DNA of 24,000 bases from an uncultured Pseudomonadota bacterium (GTDB lineage Bacteria > Pseudomonadota > Gammaproteobacteria > Burkholderiales > Rhodocyclaceae), in NCBI GenBank assembly GCA_903870055.1, contig CAIQBG010000016.1, positions 52,709 to 76,708 of the forward strand, written 5' to 3'. The notes under the pieces are model-generated. The model was not told the DNA's origin, did not search any database, and worked only from the letters and a program-made list of their open reading frames with translations. This document shows positions 13,387 through 24,000 of this stretch, one piece after another (position 1 is the stretch's first letter; every line of letters starts with the position of its first letter). Position numbers and translations under genes: made by a program.

Positions 13387-13479
13387 AGCGCCATGATAAC
13401 AAATTGAGCCCCAAGCAAGGCAGAGACGGAATGAGTCTTTGCTCAGGTTGAGCATAGGGGCATTAATCGAGAGGCGGCT

Positions 13480-15588
13480 ATGGAAAAAACGGTCAAAAAT
13501 CTACCAGAAATCGGGATCCTATGGGCCTTGCGTTGCTTAGTGCGCCTGGATGGCTATAAGCAATTCCTTGCAGAAGATGGTTTTATGGACGATGCACTCG
13601 CCCGTACATTAGGTCTTGGAACCTATATTCCTGAAACTGAGGCAGAAGGGAATATGTTCAACCGACACAAAATGCTTTCGAAGCTGCGCTTCAAATTGAA
13701 ACAGATGGAAGCAGATACAGAACACATCCGCGTGCCGGAGGATTTGGCCGAAAATATTAGCCGCTTACAGTCAATGACGCGGATGTCGGATACTGAATGC
13801 CGTATTCTTGAGTTCGCGATTATGTCGCACGGTATGCGTGACATTGAGCGTATTACTGAACTACCCCCTTGTATTCGTCCGGCCGAAGTCGCTAAACATA
13901 TTGCGATTTATCTGGGCACGCCCGTTAACGACGTGCTCAAAGCGGTTAATCGTCAGTCACTGATGGTCCGCTCAGGTTTGTTCTGCATCTCGGGGAATGA
14001 AACTTTTATGCCCTCACTTTGCGAGCATATGAAGCTGGTGTCATATACGTTTGCCGAACAAATGCTCTCGGCCAATTGTGATTTTGAGCAGATTTTTCAT
14101 GACATGGTTTCGCCAGGCAGAAAATCAACACTGACAATTAATGACTTCTCCCATCTTAAGGATCAAGTAGAGATTCTTTGCCAATACTTATCCCATGCTG
14201 TGAAAGAAAAGAAGCAAGGTGCCAACGTTTTAATCTGGGGAAAGCCTGGTGTTGGCAAGACTGCGTTGGCACAGGTGGTTGCCGATGTTGTTGGTTTGCC
14301 GCTCTATGAAATTTCCAGCGAGGGGCAGGACGGTATGCCTTTGACGGGTGATGAGCGCTTCCGCGCCTACACGGCTGCGCAGTCTTTCTTGTGCCAGAAA
14401 GATAGCCTCTTTGTATTTGATGAGGTGGAGGATGTTTTTAGTGGAAACCGCGTTTTGACCAACCTGTTGGGTGGGCGTGATCGTAATGTGAACGCCGGGC
14501 TGAATAAAGCCTGGATCAACAATACGCTGGAGAGCAATTCGGTCCCGACGATTTGGATCAGCAACTCTGTCCACGGAACCATTGATCCGGCGCACGCCCG
14601 CCGCTTCTCTCTGATAATCGAAATGCCGATTGCGCCACAAGCGCAGCGCCGTCGAATGATCATGGATATGGGTCAGGGTTTGCTCAATGAGGAAACCGTT
14701 AACTTGCTTAGCCAATCTGAGCAACTTGCACCGGCAGTTGTTAGTCGTGCGATTGATGTCATTAAAACGATAGAGCCAGATATGGCGCAAAAGAAAGCAT
14801 CGGCATGGGCTAAGTTGATGGTTAATGCCACCTTGGAAGCTCAGTCACACCAATCGTTGCCTGCAAACGCCTCGAAGAAATTGATGGACTATGATCCGAT
14901 ATTTGTGAATGCCAATTACGATCTTGCCGAGGTGGCCAAAGGCCTGGCACGCGCCAACCAGGGTCGTTTATTGCTCATGGGGCCGCCTGGCTGCGGCAAG
15001 AGCGGTTATGCCGCTTGGTTAGCCCATCATTTAGGTAAACCATTGCATGCAAAAAAAGGCTCAGATTTTCTGGGGGCTTATGTAGGAGAGTCCGAAAAGA
15101 ATATTGCCAAGGCATTCAAAGAGGCAATGGAGGCAGACGCGATTTTACTAATTGACGAGGTGGACTCGTTCCTGGCCAAGCGTAGCAATGCCACACATAA
15201 CTGGGAAGTCTCTTTAGTGAATCAGGTGCTCGTCGAGATGTCGGAGTTTAATGGCTACCTGGTTGCAACGACAAACATCAATGCGGACCAGTTGGATCCT
15301 GCAGCGTTGCGTCGCTTTGATTTGAAAGCCAACTTTGAATACCTGCGCCAGGAGCAGGTGATTGCCATGGCTCAAAAACACTGCGCCACCTTGGGTCTTA
15401 GTGCGTTAGAGACAAACCATCAACAAGCATTGACTCAGCTTCACAAGCTGACGCCCGGTGACTTTGCTGTGATTGAGAGTCAGGCGAAATTCATTGAAAT
15501 TACTTCGACGGATAAGTTAATTGAAGCGCTAACCCGTGAGCATAGCGTCAAAGCCGCGACTAATATGGCTATGGGGTTTATTCATTAG
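13480..15588 (+). CDS. Tandem (D1-D2) classical-clade AAA+ ATPase with an uncharacterised ~240-aa N-terminal domain
   Basis: 702-aa ORF with RBS GAGAGG. D1 has Walker A GKPGVGKT (aa 254-261, nt 14239-14262) and Walker B LFVFDEVED. D2 has Walker A GPPGCGKS (aa 501-508, nt 14980-15003), Walker B ILLIDEVDS, GESEKNIAKAF and PAALRRFD. No TM segment and no protease domain. Confidence 0.85.
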   Translation: MEKTVKNLPEIGILWALRCLVRLDGYKQFLAEDGFMDDALARTLGLGTYIPETEAEGNMFNRHKMLSKLRFKLKQMEADTEHIRVPEDLAENISRLQSMTRMSDTECRILEFAIMSHGMRDIERITELPPCIRPAEVAKHIAIYLGTPVNDVLKAVNRQSLMVRSGLFCISGNETFMPSLCEHMKLVSYTFAEQMLSANCDFEQIFHDMVSPGRKSTLTINDFSHLKDQVEILCQYLSHAVKEKKQGANVLIWGKPGVGKTALAQVVADVVGLPLYEISSEGQDGMPLTGDERFRAYTAAQSFLCQKDSLFVFDEVEDVFSGNRVLTNLLGGRDRNVNAGLNKAWINNTLESNSVPTIWISNSVHGTIDPAHARRFSLIIEMPIAPQAQRRRMIMDMGQGLLNEETVNLLSQSEQLAPAVVSRAIDVIKTIEPDMAQKKASAWAKLMVNATLEAQSHQSLPANASKKLMDYDPIFVNANYDLAEVAKGLARANQGRLLLMGPPGCGKSGYAAWLAHHLGKPLHAKKGSDFLGAYVGESEKNIAKAFKEAMEADAILLIDEVDSFLAKRSNATHNWEVSLVNQVLVEMSEFNGYLVATTNINADQLDPAALRRFDLKANFEYLRQEQVIAMAQKHCATLGLSALETNHQQALTQLHKLTPGDFAVIESQAKFIEITSTDKLIEALTREHSVKAATNMAMGFIH

Positions 15589-16208
15589 CGGTGGCTTTGG
15601 AGCAAGCATAGCGATTTAGCAATTTTCCAGGCAAGGATTGCATCAGTAGGGTCGCCGAGTGTGTCCAGCACGAAGTTGTGTCGTCCATCGCTGCCCACGA
15701 TCCACAAACATTCACCTCCGGCAGCATGAAAGCCTGTTTGGGAGTCGGACGTGCTACAAGAGATCTTTGCTTTGTGGCCAAACCATCCGATACCACTGAT
15801 TGCTTGTGCAGGCCCATTACCAAACCTGCCAATGTTGGGACGAACCACCCCCTTGTCTTTAACAAAGATGCTTTCTTTGTGGTTGGCAGCATTAAAATCG
15901 CCTCGGGCGACTTTAATATGCACGACGTAATTGCTAGGTTCGAGCATTCGTTTGCCGTTAAATAAAAGATCCGTGTTGTTTTGACTGAGCAACCTCTTCG
16001 TGTGTTGTGCCGAAGGTTTAGTCAGGACATAAATGTCCTGACCTTCAGTTTTGATTAGAAATTTAGGCGGATAGCAAAACGAGACCCCAAGTTGTAGATT
16101 GCTGAAGCGTTGCCAGTTTTTTCCGTAAAAACTGCAGTCAGTTGCATTTGCAGTTATGGGTAGTAGCCCCACTAAAACTATTGCTAATGTCTTAAGCCGC
16201 AGATTCAT
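15585..16208 (-). CDS. Secreted protein of unknown function (Sec signal peptide, six Cys in the mature part)
   Basis: 207-aa ORF. Signal peptide MNLRLKTLAIVLVGLLPITANA/TD. Its ATG lies 17 nt inside the 3' end of the upstream FtsH-like gene, and its stop overlaps the stop of the convergent AAA+ gene. Confidence 0.6.
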   Translation of the reverse strand: MNLRLKTLAIVLVGLLPITANATDCSFYGKNWQRFSNLQLGVSFCYPPKFLIKTEGQDIYVLTKPSAQHTKRLLSQNNTDLLFNGKRMLEPSNYVVHIKVARGDFNAANHKESIFVKDKGVVRPNIGRFGNGPAQAISGIGWFGHKAKISCSTSDSQTGFHAAGGECLWIVGSDGRHNFVLDTLGDPTDAILAWKIAKSLCLLQSHR

Positions 16209-17571
16209 TTAGGACACCATATTCAATCGCCATGGATTTGAGATGGCCTTTGTCCAGAATCTTTTGCTTAACAAGACGATCAGCGATTGCCTCAAGAAAA
16301 ACACGGTGAGCCCGAAGTTGGTCAAGAACCACATCGTACTGTCGTGAAAGAAACAAACGGGCAGCATTCTCAATACGATGTTTTTCAGTATCAGAAACAT
16401 CGGTGCCTATTTTCAGTAAAAGATTAGATCCAGCGGTAGATTCATCTTCCATTGTTGGGCTAATGCCATAACGACCAATCAGATCTTTGGCGATGTCTGT
16501 GGCATGACGGAGATCACTGCGAGCGCTAGTGACAGACATATCTTCAATCCCAACAGTTAGTTGCTCGGCAGCACGACCTGCGAGCAGCACCCTCACAAGG
16601 TGGCGTTTGTATTTGTAAATGCCAATGGAAGGTATTGATGCCAGAAATTCATAAGATGCTGAAACCTGCCCCAAAGTGCCTATGGATGGAACAATCCCGG
16701 CGTAATCCGGAATGTTCATGCCGGATGAGTCAACTATGCTGACGAGTGCGTGCCCAGCCTCATGCAGTGCAATACTGTGTCTGAACTCTTTAGACGTGTT
16801 ATTAGGTACGTATTCACCCGTACCGTGTAGTGCAAAGTTAATCAGATCGCCGAACTCCACCTTGCGTTTTTCACGGTAAGCCAGCCGCTTTAGTGCGATG
16901 ATAATCAGGCCTACACGGCGCTCATCGGCAGCTTCGCAATCTAGAACCTGTCCGATTGGCTTAGGATCTGACAGCAAAGAGCTGCCACAAATATCAAGGG
17001 GCAACATCTCGACAAAAGCGAGCCCACGGTCGTGTAGCGATATGTCATCTACAAAGAAACGACGATCAAACGCCCCAGGGCTGCGCAGATCTTCTACTAA
17101 GTCGCACGGATCGTCACCGTAAGTAACAAATACCAGGTGTTTATCCGCAGGAATTTGAGCCATGAGTTCGGCAAATTTTTTATGGAAGGCCTGGATCTCA
17201 TCGGCATTCGAATGATCTTTGGTATCGGCAGACCAGATACCCAATGGCATCATGACTAGCGTGGGATCGAGAATCTCCGTGAATCCATTGGCAAAGAATT
17301 CAAAAATTTTATCTGCTGCCAATTCCCTTACTTGATAGCCGGATGCTTGTGCAATTTGATGAATGATTTTTTTGCTGTACTCCTTGTTGTCGTTCACAAT
17401 CATCGCAGCACGCCCAACAATTTCCCAGTCAATGGTTTGAGGTACACAGTTACTCGCCATATTGGCGAGTTCAATTGCCCAGGCTTTAATGGGGCGAAAC
17501 CGATCCGGGTTGCTCCACCCGGTTACCATGGGTTCGCTGGCAACCCGCATGTTTTGAAATGTTGATTTCAT
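16192..17571 (-). CDS. Soluble FtsH-like protein: degenerate (Walker A/B-less) AAA module fused to an intact M41 zinc-peptidase domain
   Basis: 459-aa ORF with strong RBS GGAGAAGG. M41 motif ALHEAGHAL (nt 16750-16764), third-ligand Glu in GRAAEQL, and AAA remnant LRSPGAFDRRFFV (compare [12 protein letters not shown] of FtsH). MIVNDNKEYSKK and LVMMPLGI occupy the Walker A and Walker B positions. No TM helices. Confidence 0.85.
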   Translation of the reverse strand: MKSTFQNMRVASEPMVTGWSNPDRFRPIKAWAIELANMASNCVPQTIDWEIVGRAAMIVNDNKEYSKKIIHQIAQASGYQVRELAADKIFEFFANGFTEILDPTLVMMPLGIWSADTKDHSNADEIQAFHKKFAELMAQIPADKHLVFVTYGDDPCDLVEDLRSPGAFDRRFFVDDISLHDRGLAFVEMLPLDICGSSLLSDPKPIGQVLDCEAADERRVGLIIIALKRLAYREKRKVEFGDLINFALHGTGEYVPNNTSKEFRHSIALHEAGHALVSIVDSSGMNIPDYAGIVPSIGTLGQVSASYEFLASIPSIGIYKYKRHLVRVLLAGRAAEQLTVGIEDMSVTSARSDLRHATDIAKDLIGRYGISPTMEDESTAGSNLLLKIGTDVSDTEKHRIENAARLFLSRQYDVVLDQLRAHRVFLEAIADRLVKQKILDKGHLKSMAIEYGVLNESAA

Positions 17572-17644
17572 AGACCTTCTCCAAGAATTACAGATAATCT
17601 AAGTAGGACTAAAGACGCTTGGTGTCTTAAGACATCGCACTAGA

Positions 17645-17980
17645 CTAGTGAAAACTGCCTTGAAAGCAGTGGCGCAGCTCGTGCCCTAAAACATGCATCG
17701 TTGTCTGACGTGCCGTAATGATGGTGCAGCTGTTTTTGTCCCAAAAGGAGCAGGCATCGACGGCGTAGCCAAAGCCTCCGAGTTTTCGTTGGCGACTTTC
17801 GGCTTCGCACGCCTTCTGTACGTTATCGGTGAAGCGCCAGGCAATCTGCTTGGAATCTGCGTGGCGTTCCGTAGCGCTAAACTTTGTTTCTGGATTGCGC
17901 CAAGTCGGCTCGCTTCCCCATGACGGTATTCCTGTAAAAACGAGACCTGCGATTAGGGGCCAATTAAGAAGCGTTTTCAT
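17645..17980 (-). CDS. Small secreted four-Cys protein with C-terminal HExxHxxxGxxH (putative minimal zincin), paralogue 1
   Basis: 111-aa ORF. Signal peptide MKTLLNWPLIAGLVFTGIPSWG/S. The C-terminus GHELRHCFQGSFH (nt 17648-17683) ends the protein. About 28 of 59 aligned C-terminal positions are identical to the 125-aa ORF at 20002..20379 (hand alignment). Confidence 0.6.
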   Translation of the reverse strand: MKTLLNWPLIAGLVFTGIPSWGSEPTWRNPETKFSATERHADSKQIAWRFTDNVQKACEAESRQRKLGGFGYAVDACSFWDKNSCTIITARQTTMHVLGHELRHCFQGSFH

Positions 17981-18020: not shown

Positions 18021-18043
18021 GTGAAGACAAATCTAGTCTTCAC
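18021..18043 (-). other. Perfect 8-bp inverted repeat (hairpin) in the lipoprotein/mini-zincin intergenic spacer
   Basis: GTGAAGAC (18021-18028), 7-nt loop, GTCTTCAC (18036-18043). It starts 7 nt after the lipoprotein stop on the minus strand. No adjacent U-run, so it is not a canonical intrinsic terminator. Confidence 0.35.
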
Positions 18044-18049
18044 GCGTTG

Positions 18050-19108
18050 TCAGTTAAATTTCAAGCGGAACTTCAGGTCATATCCTTCCGTGACCCAGTT
18101 GCTAGCAAAGTTTAGGTTTCCTTGGACATTAATTGCTTTTTCAGCAACGAGATCGAATTTCGATTTAGGACGATTCTGATCATCAACCCAGGGGGTTTTG
18201 GTATCTACATGCTGGTTTAGTGTGACAACGCCATCGCGAACCGGAAATCCAGCTACCGTTGTCCCGTCTCGGTTCATGATCGCAACGATTGCTGCTGCAT
18301 TAATCTGTTCATAGACTTCATCGGCCGCCCACCCTTGGTAACAATTAACTTCGCCTTTCCCGGCAAAGCAAAGGCTGAATGAATCGCCAGGGTTAGGTGG
18401 CGCCGTTGTATTGCTTTTGTTTTCGATAAAGGGCGCCACGATAATCGCTACTGGTATAAGCACTGGTAAAGCCGCTAATACAAGGAAACCCTTTCCAAGC
18501 TCGGCCCAGTTGTTTTTTTCGTGGTAGCTGTGCTTTGTGCCGTGCACCGTCAGAAAAGATTCAATGTCTGTCAGCCATTTGGGGCTGGGTATAATTTTTG
18601 TGAATTGGACTGCCATTCCAACGCTGCCATCCGCATTTACTATGGGATCGATGGTCCGTGATTCAACCTGGATCATTTCAGGTCGACGAACAAGTTTACG
18701 AAGCAGCTCTCGCGTACTGATTTGCTTGTTGAGATGGCGCTCGACTACGCCTAGGTCAATATTTTTCTCGGTGTTGACGACGATGCTTTTGGCATCAGGA
18801 GAAACCTTGGCTTCTATAGAAACTGTACAAGGCGATCCTCCCGAGTTTGATAACACTTTGTAGCTTTGCACAATGCCACCACTGTATTCATCAATAGACT
18901 CAGCGTATTCGTTGGCATTATTCAGGCTGCGCCGGCTGCTCAAAAAGCTGCCCTTGTAGTCTTCAGTCGCCTTAACTTTGGCCTGTTGTAATGCTTCTGT
19001 GCAATTGCGTCCGTAACCATCTGCTCGGAATCCCTGAGCGTCCGGTTTAACTGAAGCGCAGGCAGAAAGCACTAGCACTAACAGCCACGGTCCGATCTTT
19101 TTGATCAT
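18050..19108 (-). CDS. Lipoprotein with an internal transmembrane helix, function unknown
   Basis: The start is taken at ATG 19108 (RBS GAGGAG 7 nt upstream) rather than the ORF-track 19186. Signal/lipobox MIKKIGPWLLVLVLSAC, and a hydrophobic 22-mer GFLVLAALPVLIPVAIIVAPFI about 205 residues into the mature protein. Confidence 0.75.
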   Translation of the reverse strand: MIKKIGPWLLVLVLSACASVKPDAQGFRADGYGRNCTEALQQAKVKATEDYKGSFLSSRRSLNNANEYAESIDEYSGGIVQSYKVLSNSGGSPCTVSIEAKVSPDAKSIVVNTEKNIDLGVVERHLNKQISTRELLRKLVRRPEMIQVESRTIDPIVNADGSVGMAVQFTKIIPSPKWLTDIESFLTVHGTKHSYHEKNNWAELGKGFLVLAALPVLIPVAIIVAPFIENKSNTTAPPNPGDSFSLCFAGKGEVNCYQGWAADEVYEQINAAAIVAIMNRDGTTVAGFPVRDGVVTLNQHVDTKTPWVDDQNRPKSKFDLVAEKAINVQGNLNFASNWVTEGYDLKFRLKFN

Positions 19109-19254
19109 GATGGGTCTCCTCGATGAGAGAACAATTAGATCAAGGGGTCGAGACAATATATGTCTTAAGCAACCTCTATCCTGCATAGCACTTCCGGATT
19201 ACACCGGAGGAGCCATCAGCCATATTCATATCTCTTAAACTAAGGAATCTCTTC

Positions 19255-20382: not shown

Positions 20383-21843
20383 TTAGTCCTTTGCCCAGGC
20401 GTTCCATGTCTGATAAATCATAACCATCGCTAAAGTATCCAGCTCGCAGTACCTGAGCAAAGCCTTCCTGGTTGATTCTCTTAGTAGATCCGTCACATCT
20501 TCGAATTGCATACGTGCATAAGCAGTCGTGGCAGCACCTCCTTCGCGAATATCGTCACCCGCAACCGCATCCTCTCCAACGAGTTCCGATTGTTCAATGT
20601 CAGCAAAAATAGGGGGCAACAGATCATACGGATTCTTTGCACCATCTCCATCGGCAACCCACCAAGTCATCCCTTGTGCACCATCAATTGGGAAATTTTT
20701 GCTGGAAATACCGTTCGGTGCACCATAAACCGGTTGGCTATAAACACTTCTTAGCCATTCAGAAGATTTCATGACCGCCGGGAGAATCACTTTGATGCTG
20801 GTGCGTCCCTTGGTATCTGGATGGAAAAAGCACTGTCCAGCCAACACATTTAGATCGACCATCGTGCGAACGCCACGAACCACTGTTTCTTTACCGACTT
20901 TTCTGGTCGTTAATGATTCCGCAAACTTGATTAATTCATCCGCATCCGAAGGGGCTTTGCCAATTGCCTTAAGCTCCAGAAGGTCAGCGCGCAGACCGTT
21001 GAGCATGGTGTTTTCATAGTGACTCCACATGAACACGGTGCCTTTTTCCTGCCCGGGAGTACAAAGTGCCTTTTTGAGGGCCCGCAGGAAATCGATGGAT
21101 GGGTCAATACCAGGTGATAGATCTAGGAATTCGTTGGCATGTGTCACAGTGCCATTCGCGTCCAGCACATGGTGCGAAAACTGGAATGCAACCTGCGAAT
21201 AGGGCCGTTTGCCAGATACGAATGGCAATGCTGGTCGCGAGCCTTCAAAGTCGATGAAATGTAACGGGAAGGTGAATTCCGCTGCGGCTTGATGCCATAC
21301 AGCCTTGTCAAACTCGAATGGTTTTGCCTGACCCCACTCACCAAAAACTTGTAAATATTGGCGATAAGCCCGACTCATGCCTTGTCCCGCCTTGGTCTCT
21401 TCGAAATCTTCTTCTTCCAAAGTAGATAACCACAGGCCGCGGGATTTAATTAACTTATCGATCTGGCCTTTGACTGGGTAATACAATTCTGTGATCGGTC
21501 GATTTTTCTGGATATCCGCATATGAGACATGCGTGGCCTCAGCCCAGCATTCATGAAATCCACTTTTATGCTGAGCGTCGGGGTTGGCCGAATAAAACTC
21601 ACAAGTTCGGCAATGCTTACCGACAACGGCTTTGATTCGCTTTTTCTCAGCATAGGCATTAGCCCAATCCACGGCTGCCGCTTTAAAAAAACCCTCACCT
21701 CCCGGAAAGTGGATTGTTCCCGAAATAATTTGATCTACGAAACTGCTCACATCGACCGATTTAAGAAGTGGATTCCCAACCGAAGAAAGATTAGTTCCTG
21801 GCACGGTTACAGCCCAGCTTCGCTGATTGTCGCCATTGTTCAT
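20383..21843 (-). CDS. DUF2779-type protein, C-terminal part: Cys cluster plus DEDD/RNase H-like exonuclease-type domain
   Basis: 486-aa ORF. Contains HCRTCEF...HECW (three Cys). HFIDFEGSRPALPFVSGKRPYSQVAFQFSHH, GRTSIKVILPAV and LLRYCELDTLAMV match my memory of DUF2779 hallmarks and of ExoI (DxE) and ExoIII (Yx3D) motifs. It overlaps the upstream ORF by 53 nt in another frame. Confidence 0.7.
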   Translation of the reverse strand: MNNGDNQRSWAVTVPGTNLSSVGNPLLKSVDVSSFVDQIISGTIHFPGGEGFFKAAAVDWANAYAEKKRIKAVVGKHCRTCEFYSANPDAQHKSGFHECWAEATHVSYADIQKNRPITELYYPVKGQIDKLIKSRGLWLSTLEEEDFEETKAGQGMSRAYRQYLQVFGEWGQAKPFEFDKAVWHQAAAEFTFPLHFIDFEGSRPALPFVSGKRPYSQVAFQFSHHVLDANGTVTHANEFLDLSPGIDPSIDFLRALKKALCTPGQEKGTVFMWSHYENTMLNGLRADLLELKAIGKAPSDADELIKFAESLTTRKVGKETVVRGVRTMVDLNVLAGQCFFHPDTKGRTSIKVILPAVMKSSEWLRSVYSQPVYGAPNGISSKNFPIDGAQGMTWWVADGDGAKNPYDLLPPIFADIEQSELVGEDAVAGDDIREGGAATTAYARMQFEDVTDLLRESTRKALLRYCELDTLAMVMIYQTWNAWAKD

Positions 21844-22222
21844 CTGCTGTACCGCTCAAAGAATCGTAAGACTTTGACTTGACTTCGATCAATTCAATTT
21901 TCTTACCACGCTTTCGGATCACATCAATTCTGGCAACCCAGTGGCCATATTGAACCGTGCCCTCGAAAATTGTGACATCGGTCTGCTGAAGTAGTTGTTT
22001 GGTGCGTGCAATCTGATCTACCTGATCGCGATCGGTTACCTCGATACCTTCTGGATAGAGAAGCTTGGCCAGTTCACCGACCTGAAAGCCCCCATCGGCG
22101 AGTGCTTTTAGAAAGTCATTGCTTTTCTTGGTGTCTACGTAGTCTGGTTTGCCCACATAATCCAGCTTTGTTGGGCACTCGAGGGCTGTCTTAAAACGAC
22201 TTTTGCTCAGGTAGCGGCTCAT
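21791..22222 (-). CDS. PD-(D/E)XK (Cas4/RecB-like) nuclease core, N-terminal part of a split DUF2779-family gene
   Basis: The start is taken at ATG 22222 (MSRYLSKSRFKTALECPTKL, the typical DUF2779-protein N-terminus; purine-rich AAGAGA upstream). Nuclease core ARIDVIRKRGKKIELIEVKSKS. The ORF stops 27 codons after the EVK motif. This may be a frameshifted pseudogene fragment. Confidence 0.6.
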   Translation of the reverse strand: MSRYLSKSRFKTALECPTKLDYVGKPDYVDTKKSNDFLKALADGGFQVGELAKLLYPEGIEVTDRDQVDQIARTKQLLQQTDVTIFEGTVQYGHWVARIDVIRKRGKKIELIEVKSKSYDSLSGTADEQWRQSAKLGCNRARN

Positions 22223-22235
22223 TATTTCTCTTGCC

Positions 22236-22892
22236 TCACCAAAGCACAATTCGGTCATCTGGGCTAAGCAAATCACGCCCTGCAGTACCGTTTAGTAGAT
22301 TAATGTGTGAAGCGTTTTTGCCTGGCCAAAGTTTGGCAACAATTGCATCAAGGATGCCAGCCTGATTGCCAATGATTGCCGATTCAAAGCGCTCAAGATT
22401 AGCCTTGGGCTGAATCACGGTGCTGTTAAATTTGGAGACGGCAACACGCGCATCTTTAAGTAGATCACCCGGGCCGCCAAGTGCAGTGAATCGTTCAGTT
22501 GCAAAGTCGCGCCAGTTTTCAGGATGGTGTACGCCCCCAATAGTGTCGGCGTTCGAACCGACATGGCTCCCCGTTGCTTTTACACGGTGTTTCTTCAAGC
22601 GATTCAATACGCCTTCACTTGCTTTCGAATCATTTGACGCAATGCCTACATATAGGGTCGGTTTCGGAATGTCTACTGCGAAAAGATAGATCCCATACCA
22701 GGCTTCAAGTGCTTGAGCATCGGGTGTTACGGGCTCGAGAGACTTGCTCCATGTCGTGTAGGTGGCGCGATCGCGCACGGGTGTCCAGCCTTGCGCGGTC
22801 TTTTGATGAGACAAAGGACCCCAAGGCGCCAGATCAGCTGGAACCGTAAAGTGCGTTGACACATCAAGGGGGAGATTGAAATGTAGTTCCAT
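22236..22892 (-). CDS. GIY-YIG superfamily nuclease-like protein
   Basis: 218-aa ORF with RBS AAGGAA. GIY (aa 67-69), 11 residues, then YVG (aa 81-83), followed by NRLKKH (compare KRWKRH of I-TevI), and later a candidate catalytic Glu/Asn in LERFESAIIGN. Confidence 0.55.
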   Translation of the reverse strand: MELHFNLPLDVSTHFTVPADLAPWGPLSHQKTAQGWTPVRDRATYTTWSKSLEPVTPDAQALEAWYGIYLFAVDIPKPTLYVGIASNDSKASEGVLNRLKKHRVKATGSHVGSNADTIGGVHHPENWRDFATERFTALGGPGDLLKDARVAVSKFNSTVIQPKANLERFESAIIGNQAGILDAIVAKLWPGKNASHINLLNGTAGRDLLSPDDRIVLW

Positions 22893-22917: not shown

Positions 22918-24000
22918 TTACTTGCTGTACATGCTGGCCGCTTTTTTCAAGTCTTCGGCGACGCGATTTTTGAGTACTTTGGGGCCAATAACGCGGACAT
23001 GATTGGCCATGCTGAGGATCCAGTAGACCAATTCTTCGCGGAGGGTTGTGGTCAGGCTCAGTTCGTAGCCATCCTTAACCTTTTTGGCAGTTTGGCTTTC
23101 ATCCAGGGGTGTTTCAGATATCCAGCCATAAGTGCCTTCGTCTACCCAGAGCTTAAGGTTAATAGGGTTGCCTAGGATGTCCTCATCAAATACCGGGTAC
23201 GCCAGTCCCTTCTTAAGGAAGGCGTCTAGATCAAAATCCTCGCCGCCTTTGACCGCAGCATAGTCAACAGAGTGCACGTCTTTGACTTTCTTGATGCGCG
23301 GGATTGTAAAAAAAACAGGAGCGGTCCCGTGCCCACGTTTGATACCAATCAGATAGCGGCGCACGCCGCGCTGGACGAGACCCAATGGTTTAACGACAAA
23401 CTCTTGGTCGCGGTACTGAATTTCAATCAACTTTTCCTGATACAAGGCCTCGTGAACCTGCTTCTCGACTTCAGGAGAGCTCTCGGGTGCTACAAAGCCG
23501 ACAGTTTCCGAAAGAATGGCGACCTTACTGAGCCACTTCTCTTCGGCCGCCAACGCCGCTTTGTTTGGGATTTTTTTGCCTAAATTTTTGTCTGCTTGGC
23601 TCTTCAGCAGTTCATTCTTATGAATGGCAGTAAATAGGGGGGCGAGCTCATCTACGAGAGCCCTAGGGACAAGACCAAGGCCAACTTTCTGCAGCACACC
23701 AAGTGCAACTGATTGGGCTGAGGTCAGCGCATTAACCATTAAGCCTGAACCGCCCTCTTTCCAGCTATAGGCGTTTTCACGATAGGCATGGCCTTTGTCA
23801 TCTTCGGCAAGCACCTTCTTGGATTCGATAGCGCCAGTAATCTGCTTAAGATGACGGAGATCGCGGGCAATCATTTGACGAAATCCAACGTCTTGGGCAT
23901 TTTTCTTTTTATCGGCAACACGGCAGGCGATCATTTTGACCGTCATCGGTTTGTCACTGCCTTGTAGGGTAGAGAAAACCGCCCAGATACGTTTGTTCAT
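22918..24000 (-). CDS. WYL-domain transcriptional regulator (BrxR/CapW/PafBC-like: wHTH - WYL - WCX)
   Basis: 360-aa ORF whose ATG is the last triplet of the window, so it could extend further upstream. N-terminal HTH (MTVKMIACRV...RQMIARDLRHLK). WYL-type segment LIEIQYRDQEFVVKPLGLVQRGVRRYLIGIKRGHGTAPVFFTIPRIKKV. C-terminal WCX-like ELVYWILSMANHVRVIGPKVLKNRVAEDLKKA. Confidence 0.8.
   Translation of the reverse strand: MNKRIWAVFSTLQGSDKPMTVKMIACRVADKKKNAQDVGFRQMIARDLRHLKQITGAIESKKVLAEDDKGHAYRENAYSWKEGGSGLMVNALTSAQSVALGVLQKVGLGLVPRALVDELAPLFTAIHKNELLKSQADKNLGKKIPNKAALAAEEKWLSKVAILSETVGFVAPESSPEVEKQVHEALYQEKLIEIQYRDQEFVVKPLGLVQRGVRRYLIGIKRGHGTAPVFFTIPRIKKVKDVHSVDYAAVKGGEDFDLDAFLKKGLAYPVFDEDILGNPINLKLWVDEGTYGWISETPLDESQTAKKVKDGYELSLTTTLREELVYWILSMANHVRVIGPKVLKNRVAEDLKKAASMYSK

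Follow-up and report, generated by a model that had tools for sequence, protein, structure and literature searches.

The 24,000-nt window analysed here is the whole stretch from position 52,709 to 76,708 of contig CAIQBG010000016.1, from an uncultured Rhodocyclaceae bacterium (assembly GCA_903870055.1). On its minus strand it encodes a paralogue of the protease FtsH in which profile alignments and a structural model place an intact M41 zinc-protease domain behind an AAA+ module that has lost its catalytic ATPase motifs. We judge it somewhat more probable than even that the protein is an ATP-independent, FtsH-derived soluble zinc protease, whose gene would be activated by a WYL-domain regulator from a palindrome that replaces the -35 element, in response to a single-stranded DNA (ssDNA) signal. 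The gene and the parts of its product are as follows.

16192..17571, minus strand: soluble FtsH paralogue gene, 459 amino acids (aa), ATG start, encoding a pseudo-AAA+ module and a Peptidase_M41 domain.
16798..17571, minus strand: pseudo-AAA+ module (residues 1-258), an alpha/beta core and a helical lid, catalytic ATPase motifs all lost.
17371..17394, minus strand: Walker A-equivalent loop NDNKEYSK (residues 60-67), which pairs with GPPGTGKT of FtsH and contains no GK[ST].
17242..17259, minus strand: Walker B-equivalent strand LVMMPL (residues 105-110), whose MMPL (107-110) pairs with FIDE of FtsH.
17062..17070, minus strand: remnant of the second region of homology (SRH), F168-D169-R170, with the FDR arginine kept.
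16234..16797, minus strand: Peptidase_M41 domain (residues 259-446), recognised by Pfam, NCBIfam and PDB sequence matches.
16750..16764, minus strand: HEAGH zinc-binding and catalytic motif (H270, E271, H274), invariant in the family.

A Shine-Dalgarno sequence, GGAG, lies 9 nt 5' of the ATG. The sole Pfam match of the protein was Peptidase_M41 (residues 259-446, E=1.1e-20, 74.7 bits vs. a gathering cut-off of 29.9), and no AAA family in Pfam matched it even at E<=10; a first-pass annotation of this DNA, made from the sequence alone, had named these two profiles as a check on its reading of a dead ATPase joined to a live protease, and they divided as it anticipated. The FtsH model TIGR01241 aligned with the C-terminal part only (61.6 bits, below its 600-bit equivalog cut-off), NF008004 gave 28.3 bits (cut-off 1008), and all PDB sequence matches were to protease domains of FtsH or YME1. 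The maximum 19-residue Kyte-Doolittle hydropathy was 1.31, and we therefore predict no transmembrane (TM) helix. Hydropathy and profile alignment agree that the FtsH-type N-terminal TM pair and periplasmic domain are missing and that the protein starts where the AAA module of FtsH begins, so the annotation's description of a soluble protein stands.

The fold was recovered more fully than the sequence matches. An AlphaFold2 model of the single chain, built on an alignment of 56 family sequences, had a mean predicted local distance difference test (pLDDT) of 91.5 and a predicted template-modelling (TM) score of 0.85. In Foldseek, the cytosolic parts of FtsH (3kds, 7tdo), YME1 (6az0) and AFG3L2 (6nyy) matched the whole chain over ~450-487 columns, with E down to 2e-19 and TM scores of 0.6-0.71; plastid FtsHi subunits (8xku, 8xqw, 8xks) were also among the matches. 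Profiles and model together confirm the predicted assignment as a soluble FtsH-fold protein over the full length.

To place the lost motifs we used a global profile-profile alignment (hhalign) of the 56 family members against 13 genuine FtsH sequences taken from the fetched loci, which aligned 440 columns with a probability of 100% and E=2e-59. Both this alignment and Foldseek put an AAA+ fold module N-terminal to the protease, and in the model its beta-alpha-beta core spans residues 55-173 and its helical lid residues 179-249. GPPGTGKT of Walker A fell opposite NDNKEYSK and FIDE of Walker B opposite MMPL, exactly where the hand alignment in the first-pass annotation had put them. Positions 60-68, around the Walker A-equivalent loop, vary across the 56 sequences, and the acidic DE pair of Walker B is PL in this protein and [E/P/D]-[P/Q/L] across the family. 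The pore-1 loop (MFVG in FtsH) has lost about 10 residues, its aromatic among them, and the sensor-1 Asn position is variable. The 20-residue sensor-1/SRH stretch of FtsH pairs with TYGDDPCDLVEDLRSPGAFDR, a later AAA landmark that the hand alignment had also located correctly. Within it D169 is invariant and R170 is present in 55/56 members; the first arginine of FtsH RPGRFDR is Ala167 here and Ala, Leu or Cys in the family, so that two SRH arginines are not both retained. The alignment and the model thus support the interpretation of the N-terminal half as a true AAA+ fold without catalytic ATPase motifs.

The protease half is complete. Besides scoring above the Peptidase_M41 gathering threshold, it has HEXXH and a downstream acidic zinc ligand, and H270, E271, H274, E336 and D353 are invariant across the 56 diverse homologues. 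The annotation had taken E336, the glutamate of GRAAE, as the third zinc ligand. Its invariance is borne out, but its role is not: in FtsH crystal structures the third ligand is the Asp of the xxDLxxAT helix, D353 here, and E336 corresponds to E. coli E479. The conclusion that the site is complete is unchanged.

Loss of the ATPase motifs is a property of a family. A word-indexed protein search returned at least 486 homologues. When the N-domain alone was used as a query in an exhaustive HMMER search of 1.84 billion representatives, it matched 159 clusters at 50% identity, all of family size and with no genuine AAA ATPase among them. The motif degeneration is common to all 219 full-length members: HExxH is kept in 217/219 and a P-loop occurs at the Walker A position in 0/219, the seven incidental [AG]x4GK[ST] matches all lying away from it. 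Neither of the two findings that the annotation had said would overturn it, a canonical P-loop or homologues stripped of HEXXH, has emerged from this set. D169, R229, R236 and D242 are also invariant in the 56-sequence alignment, and W31, W49, W113, G53, A74, P103 and R170 are nearly so. Pairwise identity is 0.30 in the N-domain vs. 0.40 in the M41 domain, the two being correlated (r=0.80), and in a neighbour-joining tree of M41 domains the family separates cleanly from FtsH. These comparisons of sequence confirm a family-wide loss of the ATPase motifs in one clade apart from genuine FtsH. Because residues are invariant, the motif loss is shared, the two domains are correlated and the clade is clean, we attribute the loss to selection and not to decay.

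The same data bear on whether the gene could be a decaying relic or a non-catalytic scaffold, that is, a pseudogenised FtsH copy on a mobile island. All ATPase motifs are lost, and the gene lies in a low-GC island beside a frameshifted DUF2779 gene, as a relic might. Yet the 459-aa reading frame is intact, the family comprises at least 159 clusters at 50% identity with invariant catalytic residues, constraint on the two domains is correlated, the predicted fold is confident, and the promoter architecture described below is conserved across loci. We regard decay as very improbable.

Some members carry additional domains. An N-terminal YbjN/TY-chaperone-like extension of ~170 aa occupies the place of the FtsH membrane anchor in ~35 members, one member bears a zinc ribbon at its N-terminus, and a DnaB_C-like domain is found at the C-terminus of two (fusion-domain members examined: P0091, P0131, P0149, P0161, P0202, P0027 and P0127). 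The fused YbjN/TY-chaperone-like or zinc-ribbon domains hint at modules devoted to binding substrates or partners. In L100/L101 a YbjN/TY-Chap1 gene stands by itself near the M41 gene (L100 7839-8222), and the YbjN-fused member in L099 has no WYL gene nearby and is close to a ThiF-containing cluster.

Members are filed in source databases under 'cell division protease FtsH', under 'Peptidase family M41' or as hypothetical proteins, and the searchable literature yielded no earlier account of a soluble or ATPase-dead FtsH. The 'FtsH ternary system' (PMC7159879) was considered as the same protein and rejected, as it carries FtsH-type AAA domains in tandem, the second of them active. A scan of genome contigs with the generic pattern [IV]A[VIL]HEAGHA found almost only genuine FtsH, L001 being the sole family member, and the 79 loci it yielded were reused as negative controls. 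A fixed-spacing DNA pattern was specific on known loci and gave four metagenome matches, of which L091 (1.5 kb) was too short; L090, L092 and L093 were rejected as relatives, having matched an unrelated conserved region by chance.

We then turn to the promoter, where four copies of one palindrome, a regulator gene and a second ATPase gene are involved.

17612..17628, minus strand: operator 1, AAGACACCAAGCGTCTT, 41 bp upstream of the M41 start (17571); putative WYL site at the -35 position.
17596..17601, minus strand: -10-like TAGATT (TAnnnT), exactly 10 nt downstream of operator 1.
18024..18040, minus strand: operator 2, AAGACTAGATTTGTCTT, 44 bp upstream of the start of a 111-aa open reading frame (ORF; start 17980).
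19150..19166, minus strand: operator 3, AAGACATATATTGTCTC, 42 bp upstream of the 352-aa reading of a lipoprotein gene (start 19108).
13423..13439, plus strand: operator 4, GAGACGGAATGAGTCTT, 41 bp upstream of the tandem AAA+ start (13480).
22918..24000, minus strand: helix-turn-helix (HTH)-WYL-WCX regulator, 360 aa, start codon at the window edge.
13480..15588, plus strand: tandem AAA+ ATPase, 702 aa, convergent with the M41 gene, both P-loops intact, own operator.

The 352-aa reading is the gene call in L084, an island 98% identical to that of the window. Operator 4 overlaps the first codons of a divergent GBBH-like gene.

The 17-bp palindrome AAGAC-N7-GTCTT, allowing at most one mismatch, occurs four times in the window vs. 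0.64 expected, a count reached in 0/100 shuffles, and each box is 41-44 bp upstream of a start codon. The operator stands directly upstream of the -10-like element, and no canonical sigma-70 -35/-10 promoter was called on the minus strand of the window. The arrangement recurs among the 13 independent loci compared (the window, L001, L081, L083, L085, L087, L089, L094, L096, L098, L099, L100 and L102). L094 carries one AAGAC-N7-GTCTT box 44 bp upstream of its M41 start codon and a second between the AAA+ and GIY-YIG genes; GAC-N7-GTC-type boxes hold the same M41 promoter position in L083, L087, L089 and L102. All 8 box-bearing M41 promoters, from 8 loci, have the 17-bp box, exactly 10 nt, and then TAnnnT, a match expected by chance at a fixed position in roughly 1/64 of cases per promoter. 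Because this spacing is fixed in the 8 promoters, we place the box at the -35 position, and the sequence layout is that expected of activator-type WYL regulators.

Such regulators have been described. One is DdaA, a WYL protein that activates DNA-damage and anti-phage genes and has the box CGWCA-N5-TGWCG; its ancestral form regulated uncharacterised genes next to its own locus, and its regulon in basal lineages is said to include 'ftsH' (PMC12392091, 2025). WYL regulators, activators and repressors alike, sense ssDNA (PMC11662680).

Among the family loci, L096 and L098 have exact DdaA boxes ~60 bp upstream of the M41 start, and such boxes recur in the divergent promoters there, the box taking the form GCGACA-N5-TGTCGC; their density was 4 matches in 36 kb vs. 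3 in 1.28 Mb of control loci. The exact DdaA box as a candidate for the window itself was rejected, as it was not enriched there (4 one-mismatch matches vs. 2.7 expected). In L085 (~7930) and L100 (~4180) the GAC-N7-GTC palindrome is replaced by CTGTCAGACCCC, ~60-70 bp upstream of the M41 start. This element is reminiscent of the mycobacterial PafBC/RecA-NDp TGTCRGTG motif.

The regulator gene itself often accompanies the protease gene. An HTH-WYL-WCX regulator is encoded in 10/13 loci, including the window (22918-24000). It lies directly upstream of the M41 gene on the same strand in L094, L096, L098 and L100/L101 and directly downstream in L085, and L085 and L100/L101 carry PafBC-like WYL pairs. 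Judged from boxes and gene order, the M41 gene appears to be a regulon member of island-encoded WYL regulators.

This adjacency raises a different role, in which the protein would be a site-specific regulatory protease that cleaves the WYL protein, or some other particular factor, and thereby modulates or ends the response, as CapP acts on CapH, ImmA on ImmR, and FtsH on lambda CII or sigma-32. The positions of the WYL gene next to the M41 gene just listed would suit it, protease/regulator pairs are a known theme of defence regulation (PMC11662680), and the family-specific invariant W31, W49, W113 and G111 of the pseudo-AAA module could form a recognition surface. However, WYL regulators sense ssDNA themselves and need no protease for it; the window's M41 gene is ~5 kb from the WYL gene and in a different operon; three loci have no WYL gene; and each M41 gene has its own operator, as other regulon targets do, which argues for an output and not a partner. 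We consider such a role improbable.

In the reading that we prefer, of an ATP-independent protease under WYL activation, the AAA+ module would be kept as a structural scaffold. Ring and chamber would probably still be built, presumably as a hexamer, their architecture being maintained by the retained AAA core together with the FDR motif and residues of the lid, and the pseudo-AAA+ module would neither bind nor hydrolyse ATP nor translocate substrate. The enzyme would cleave peptides, or unfolded or adaptor-presented polypeptides, without ATP, as LonC does. The island's HTH-WYL-WCX regulator, an activator of the DdaA/PafBC/DriD type, would recognise the palindrome at -35, and the protease would be made mainly when the WYL protein senses ssDNA, during DNA damage or when phage or mobile DNA replicates. 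Co-regulated with it would be the nucleases DUF2779 and GIY-YIG, a nucleotidase-like protein and, in the window's lineage, the tandem AAA+ protein.

The recurrent companions of the gene point toward a wider role. DUF2779 occurs in 7/13 loci. A nucleotidase-like gene (PF06189; PADLOC candidate PDC-S08, E=5e-134) occurs in 3/13 and is divergent from the WYL gene in each:

L096, 7862-8842: PF06189 '5-nucleotidase' gene, divergent from WYL.
L098, 5329-6252: PF06189 '5-nucleotidase' gene, divergent from WYL.
L094, 14628-15530: PF06189 '5-nucleotidase' gene, divergent from WYL.

The promoter that this gene shares with the divergent WYL gene contains a DdaA box, which suggests that PDC-S08 is also an output of the WYL regulon. 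Family islands also carry further genes of defence or toxin-antitoxin systems, among them MAD7, McrBC, GmrSD, an MmeI-type restriction-modification system, AbiE, RES-Xre and an SLFN-like helicase. A broader and more tentative proposal, which we hold to be possible but doubtful, is that the family is the proteolytic output of an unrecognised ssDNA-sensing-WYL cassette acting as an inducible anti-phage or anti-mobile-DNA defence, with a variable set of M41, DUF2779 nuclease-like and PDC-S08/PF06189 proteins and sometimes GIY-YIG and tandem AAA+. Its ATP-independent protease would destroy invader or host proteins once replication of foreign DNA is sensed. If true, bacterial immunity would have its first M41 protease effector, and a natural FtsH would for the first time be seen to work without ATP.

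Several observations weigh against the interpretation as an ATP-independent, WYL-activated protease and against its place in defence. The protease function of FtsH normally depends on its own ATPase, and activity without ATP would be an extrapolation by analogy with LonC. Three of the 13 loci (L001, L081 and L099) have neither a WYL gene nor a box. The position of the box cannot fully distinguish an activator from a repressor that overlaps -35, and in the window, where the WYL gene is ~5 kb from the M41 gene and not adjacent, binding to the box is a conjecture from co-occurrence. The operon partners (352/378-aa, 111-aa and 207-aa proteins) are exported, and their fit with a cytosolic protease is not obvious. 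With respect to defence, the M41 protein has no PADLOC match, N-domain tblastn against phage and plasmid collections found no family member, and a scan of viral contigs with an N-domain pattern found no relatives; the case for a defence role is therefore one of context.

A ring unable to hydrolyse ATP, the first-pass annotation had argued, would need an external unfoldase or would act only on peptides or unfolded substrates. The window offers one candidate for the former, namely that the adjacent, co-regulated, IetA-like 702-aa tandem AAA+ protein feeds the protease ring in the manner of IetA/IetS or ClpX/ClpP. This protein has both P-loops, and its gene and the M41 operon converge. PADLOC models of IetA, which supplies the ATPase in a defence pair of an ATPase and a protease, match it at E=6e-35, and the same operator lies 41 bp upstream of its start codon. 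Moreover, L094 keeps the M41 gene, a ~205-aa gene and the AAA+ gene (~50% identity) together amid a rearranged neighbourhood, and there too the operator precedes the AAA+ gene. Against this, the tandem AAA+ gene is kept only in the window's island (L084) and L094; it is missing from 11/13 loci, and both it and the 207-aa protein are absent even from L102, a 58%-identity relative. The AAA+ and M41 genes are convergent and not co-operonic, and a common operator speaks for co-regulation only. We therefore rate this pairing as unlikely, though plausible for the window's lineage alone. With the co-regulated tandem AAA+ confined to a narrow lineage, the family as a whole is unlikely to depend on an external unfoldase, and the absence of this gene from 11/13 loci favours the other branch of the annotation's alternative, ATP-independent action on unfolded substrates.

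The rest of the window divides into two parts. Core chromosomal genes fill the left 13 kb (mnmG/gidA, the ATP synthase operon, ubiE and the GBBH-like gene), and from roughly 13.4 kb onward the GC content falls from ~0.55 to ~0.47. The island seems to be inserted beside the ubiE and GBBH-like genes, and L084 has the same junction. On the minus strand the gene order is WYL, a 218-aa ORF, DUF2779, a 125-aa ORF, the lipoprotein-like ORF, the 111-aa ORF, M41 and the 207-aa ORF, of which the following were characterised further.

20383..22276, minus strand: DUF2779 gene, a recurrent companion of the family, split into 161-aa (21791-22276) and 486-aa (20383-21843) pieces.
18050..19186, minus strand: lipoprotein-like ORF, 378 aa (352 aa in L084), with a lipobox-like LSAC.
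17645..17980, minus strand: 111-aa ORF with an N-terminal signal-like sequence and HELRH (HExxH) near the C-terminus.
15585..16208, minus strand: 207-aa signal-peptide protein, whose start overlaps the M41 stop by 17 nt.

Both DUF2779 pieces align to single 655-684-aa proteins in L087, L094, L096 and L098, and the gene is intact (684 aa) in L084. The split near 21791-21843 is a frameshift/pseudogene or a sequencing error. The lipoprotein-like ORF is the first gene behind the operator at 19150-19166; it has a strong hydrophobic segment at about residues 233-255, and its homologue in L094 is 36% identical. The 111-aa ORF had no match in Pfam or PADLOC, and its HELRH is possibly a mini-zincin or a chance motif. 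The 17-nt overlap between the M41 and 207-aa genes makes translational coupling likely. Downstream of M41 the 207-aa protein is conserved only in L094 (31% identity), and we rejected it as a family-wide partner, the 206-aa downstream gene of L083 not being homologous. A perfect inverted repeat of 10 bp (GTCAGGACAT/ATGTCCTGAC) with a T-rich tail behind it was called terminator-like on the plus strand at 16021-16042, within the 207-aa gene and ~430 bp past the point where the convergent AAA+ gene ends.

The concept has precedents, but the clade, the complete loss of the motor and the putatively WYL-controlled promoter are new. FtsH is the textbook example of proteolysis tied to an AAA+ motor in cis, and a conserved clade that lacks the motor is a natural experiment on what the M41 chamber does without the motor and what an AAA ring adds as pure scaffold. 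The link to WYL and the operator gives an experimental handle, by induction with DNA damage or phage. It would also enlarge the set of genes under ssDNA-sensing WYL control in defence and DNA-damage islands by an uncharacterised protease now wrongly labelled 'cell division protease FtsH', and it may explain the 'ftsH' of the DdaA regulon, the sole possible earlier sighting.

Compared with FtsH, YME1 and AFG3L2, the family shares the AAA+ and M41 fold over the whole cytosolic region, together with HEXXH, the GRAAE glutamate, the xxDLxxAT aspartate, the SRH 'FDR' and lid-domain residues. It lacks the TM helices, the periplasmic domain, Walker A and B, pore-1, sensor-1 and one Arg finger, and it is island-encoded, putatively WYL-regulated and in a separate clade, whereas FtsH is a housekeeping protein. 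Like plastid FtsHi of the Ycf2-FtsHi import motor, it is an FtsH paralogue with one catalytic half inactivated and the fold kept. FtsHi, however, keeps the ATPase, loses HEXXH, and is membrane-bound and eukaryotic; the M41 family does the reverse and is soluble and bacterial. With HEXXH intact and the ATPase motifs lost, the annotation's 'mirror image of FtsHi' was a fair analogy.

The family is the reciprocal of plastid FtsHi and, most likely, the M41 counterpart of LonC of Meiothermus taiwanensis, a hexamer devoid of ATPase activity whose ATP-free degradation is limited to unfolded substrates (PMC3391209). Evolution arrived at one arrangement in two families of AAA+ proteases, a protease domain fused to an AAA-like module without canonical motifs (PMC3391209, PMC13069640). 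The likeness is functional and architectural only, since LonC has the Ser-Lys dyad of Lon and the M41 family is a zincin; in addition, LonC still binds nucleotide, whereas in the M41 family the P-loop position is not even conserved, and no WYL or island context has been reported for LonC. With the DdaA/PafBC/DriD regulons the family loci share a palindromic box upstream of -10, the exact DdaA consensus in L096 and L098, and an adjacent WYL gene; the window differs in its variant box AAGAC-N7-GTCTT and its divergent WYL protein. Finally, as in IetAS, which pairs the ATPase IetA with the S8 protease IetS, an IetA-like AAA+ gene and a protease gene share their regulation in an island of defence type. 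In contrast to IetAS, the protease here is an M41 zincin and not an S8 subtilase, no S8 protease is present, the AAA+ protein is tandem, and the pairing is not conserved across the family.

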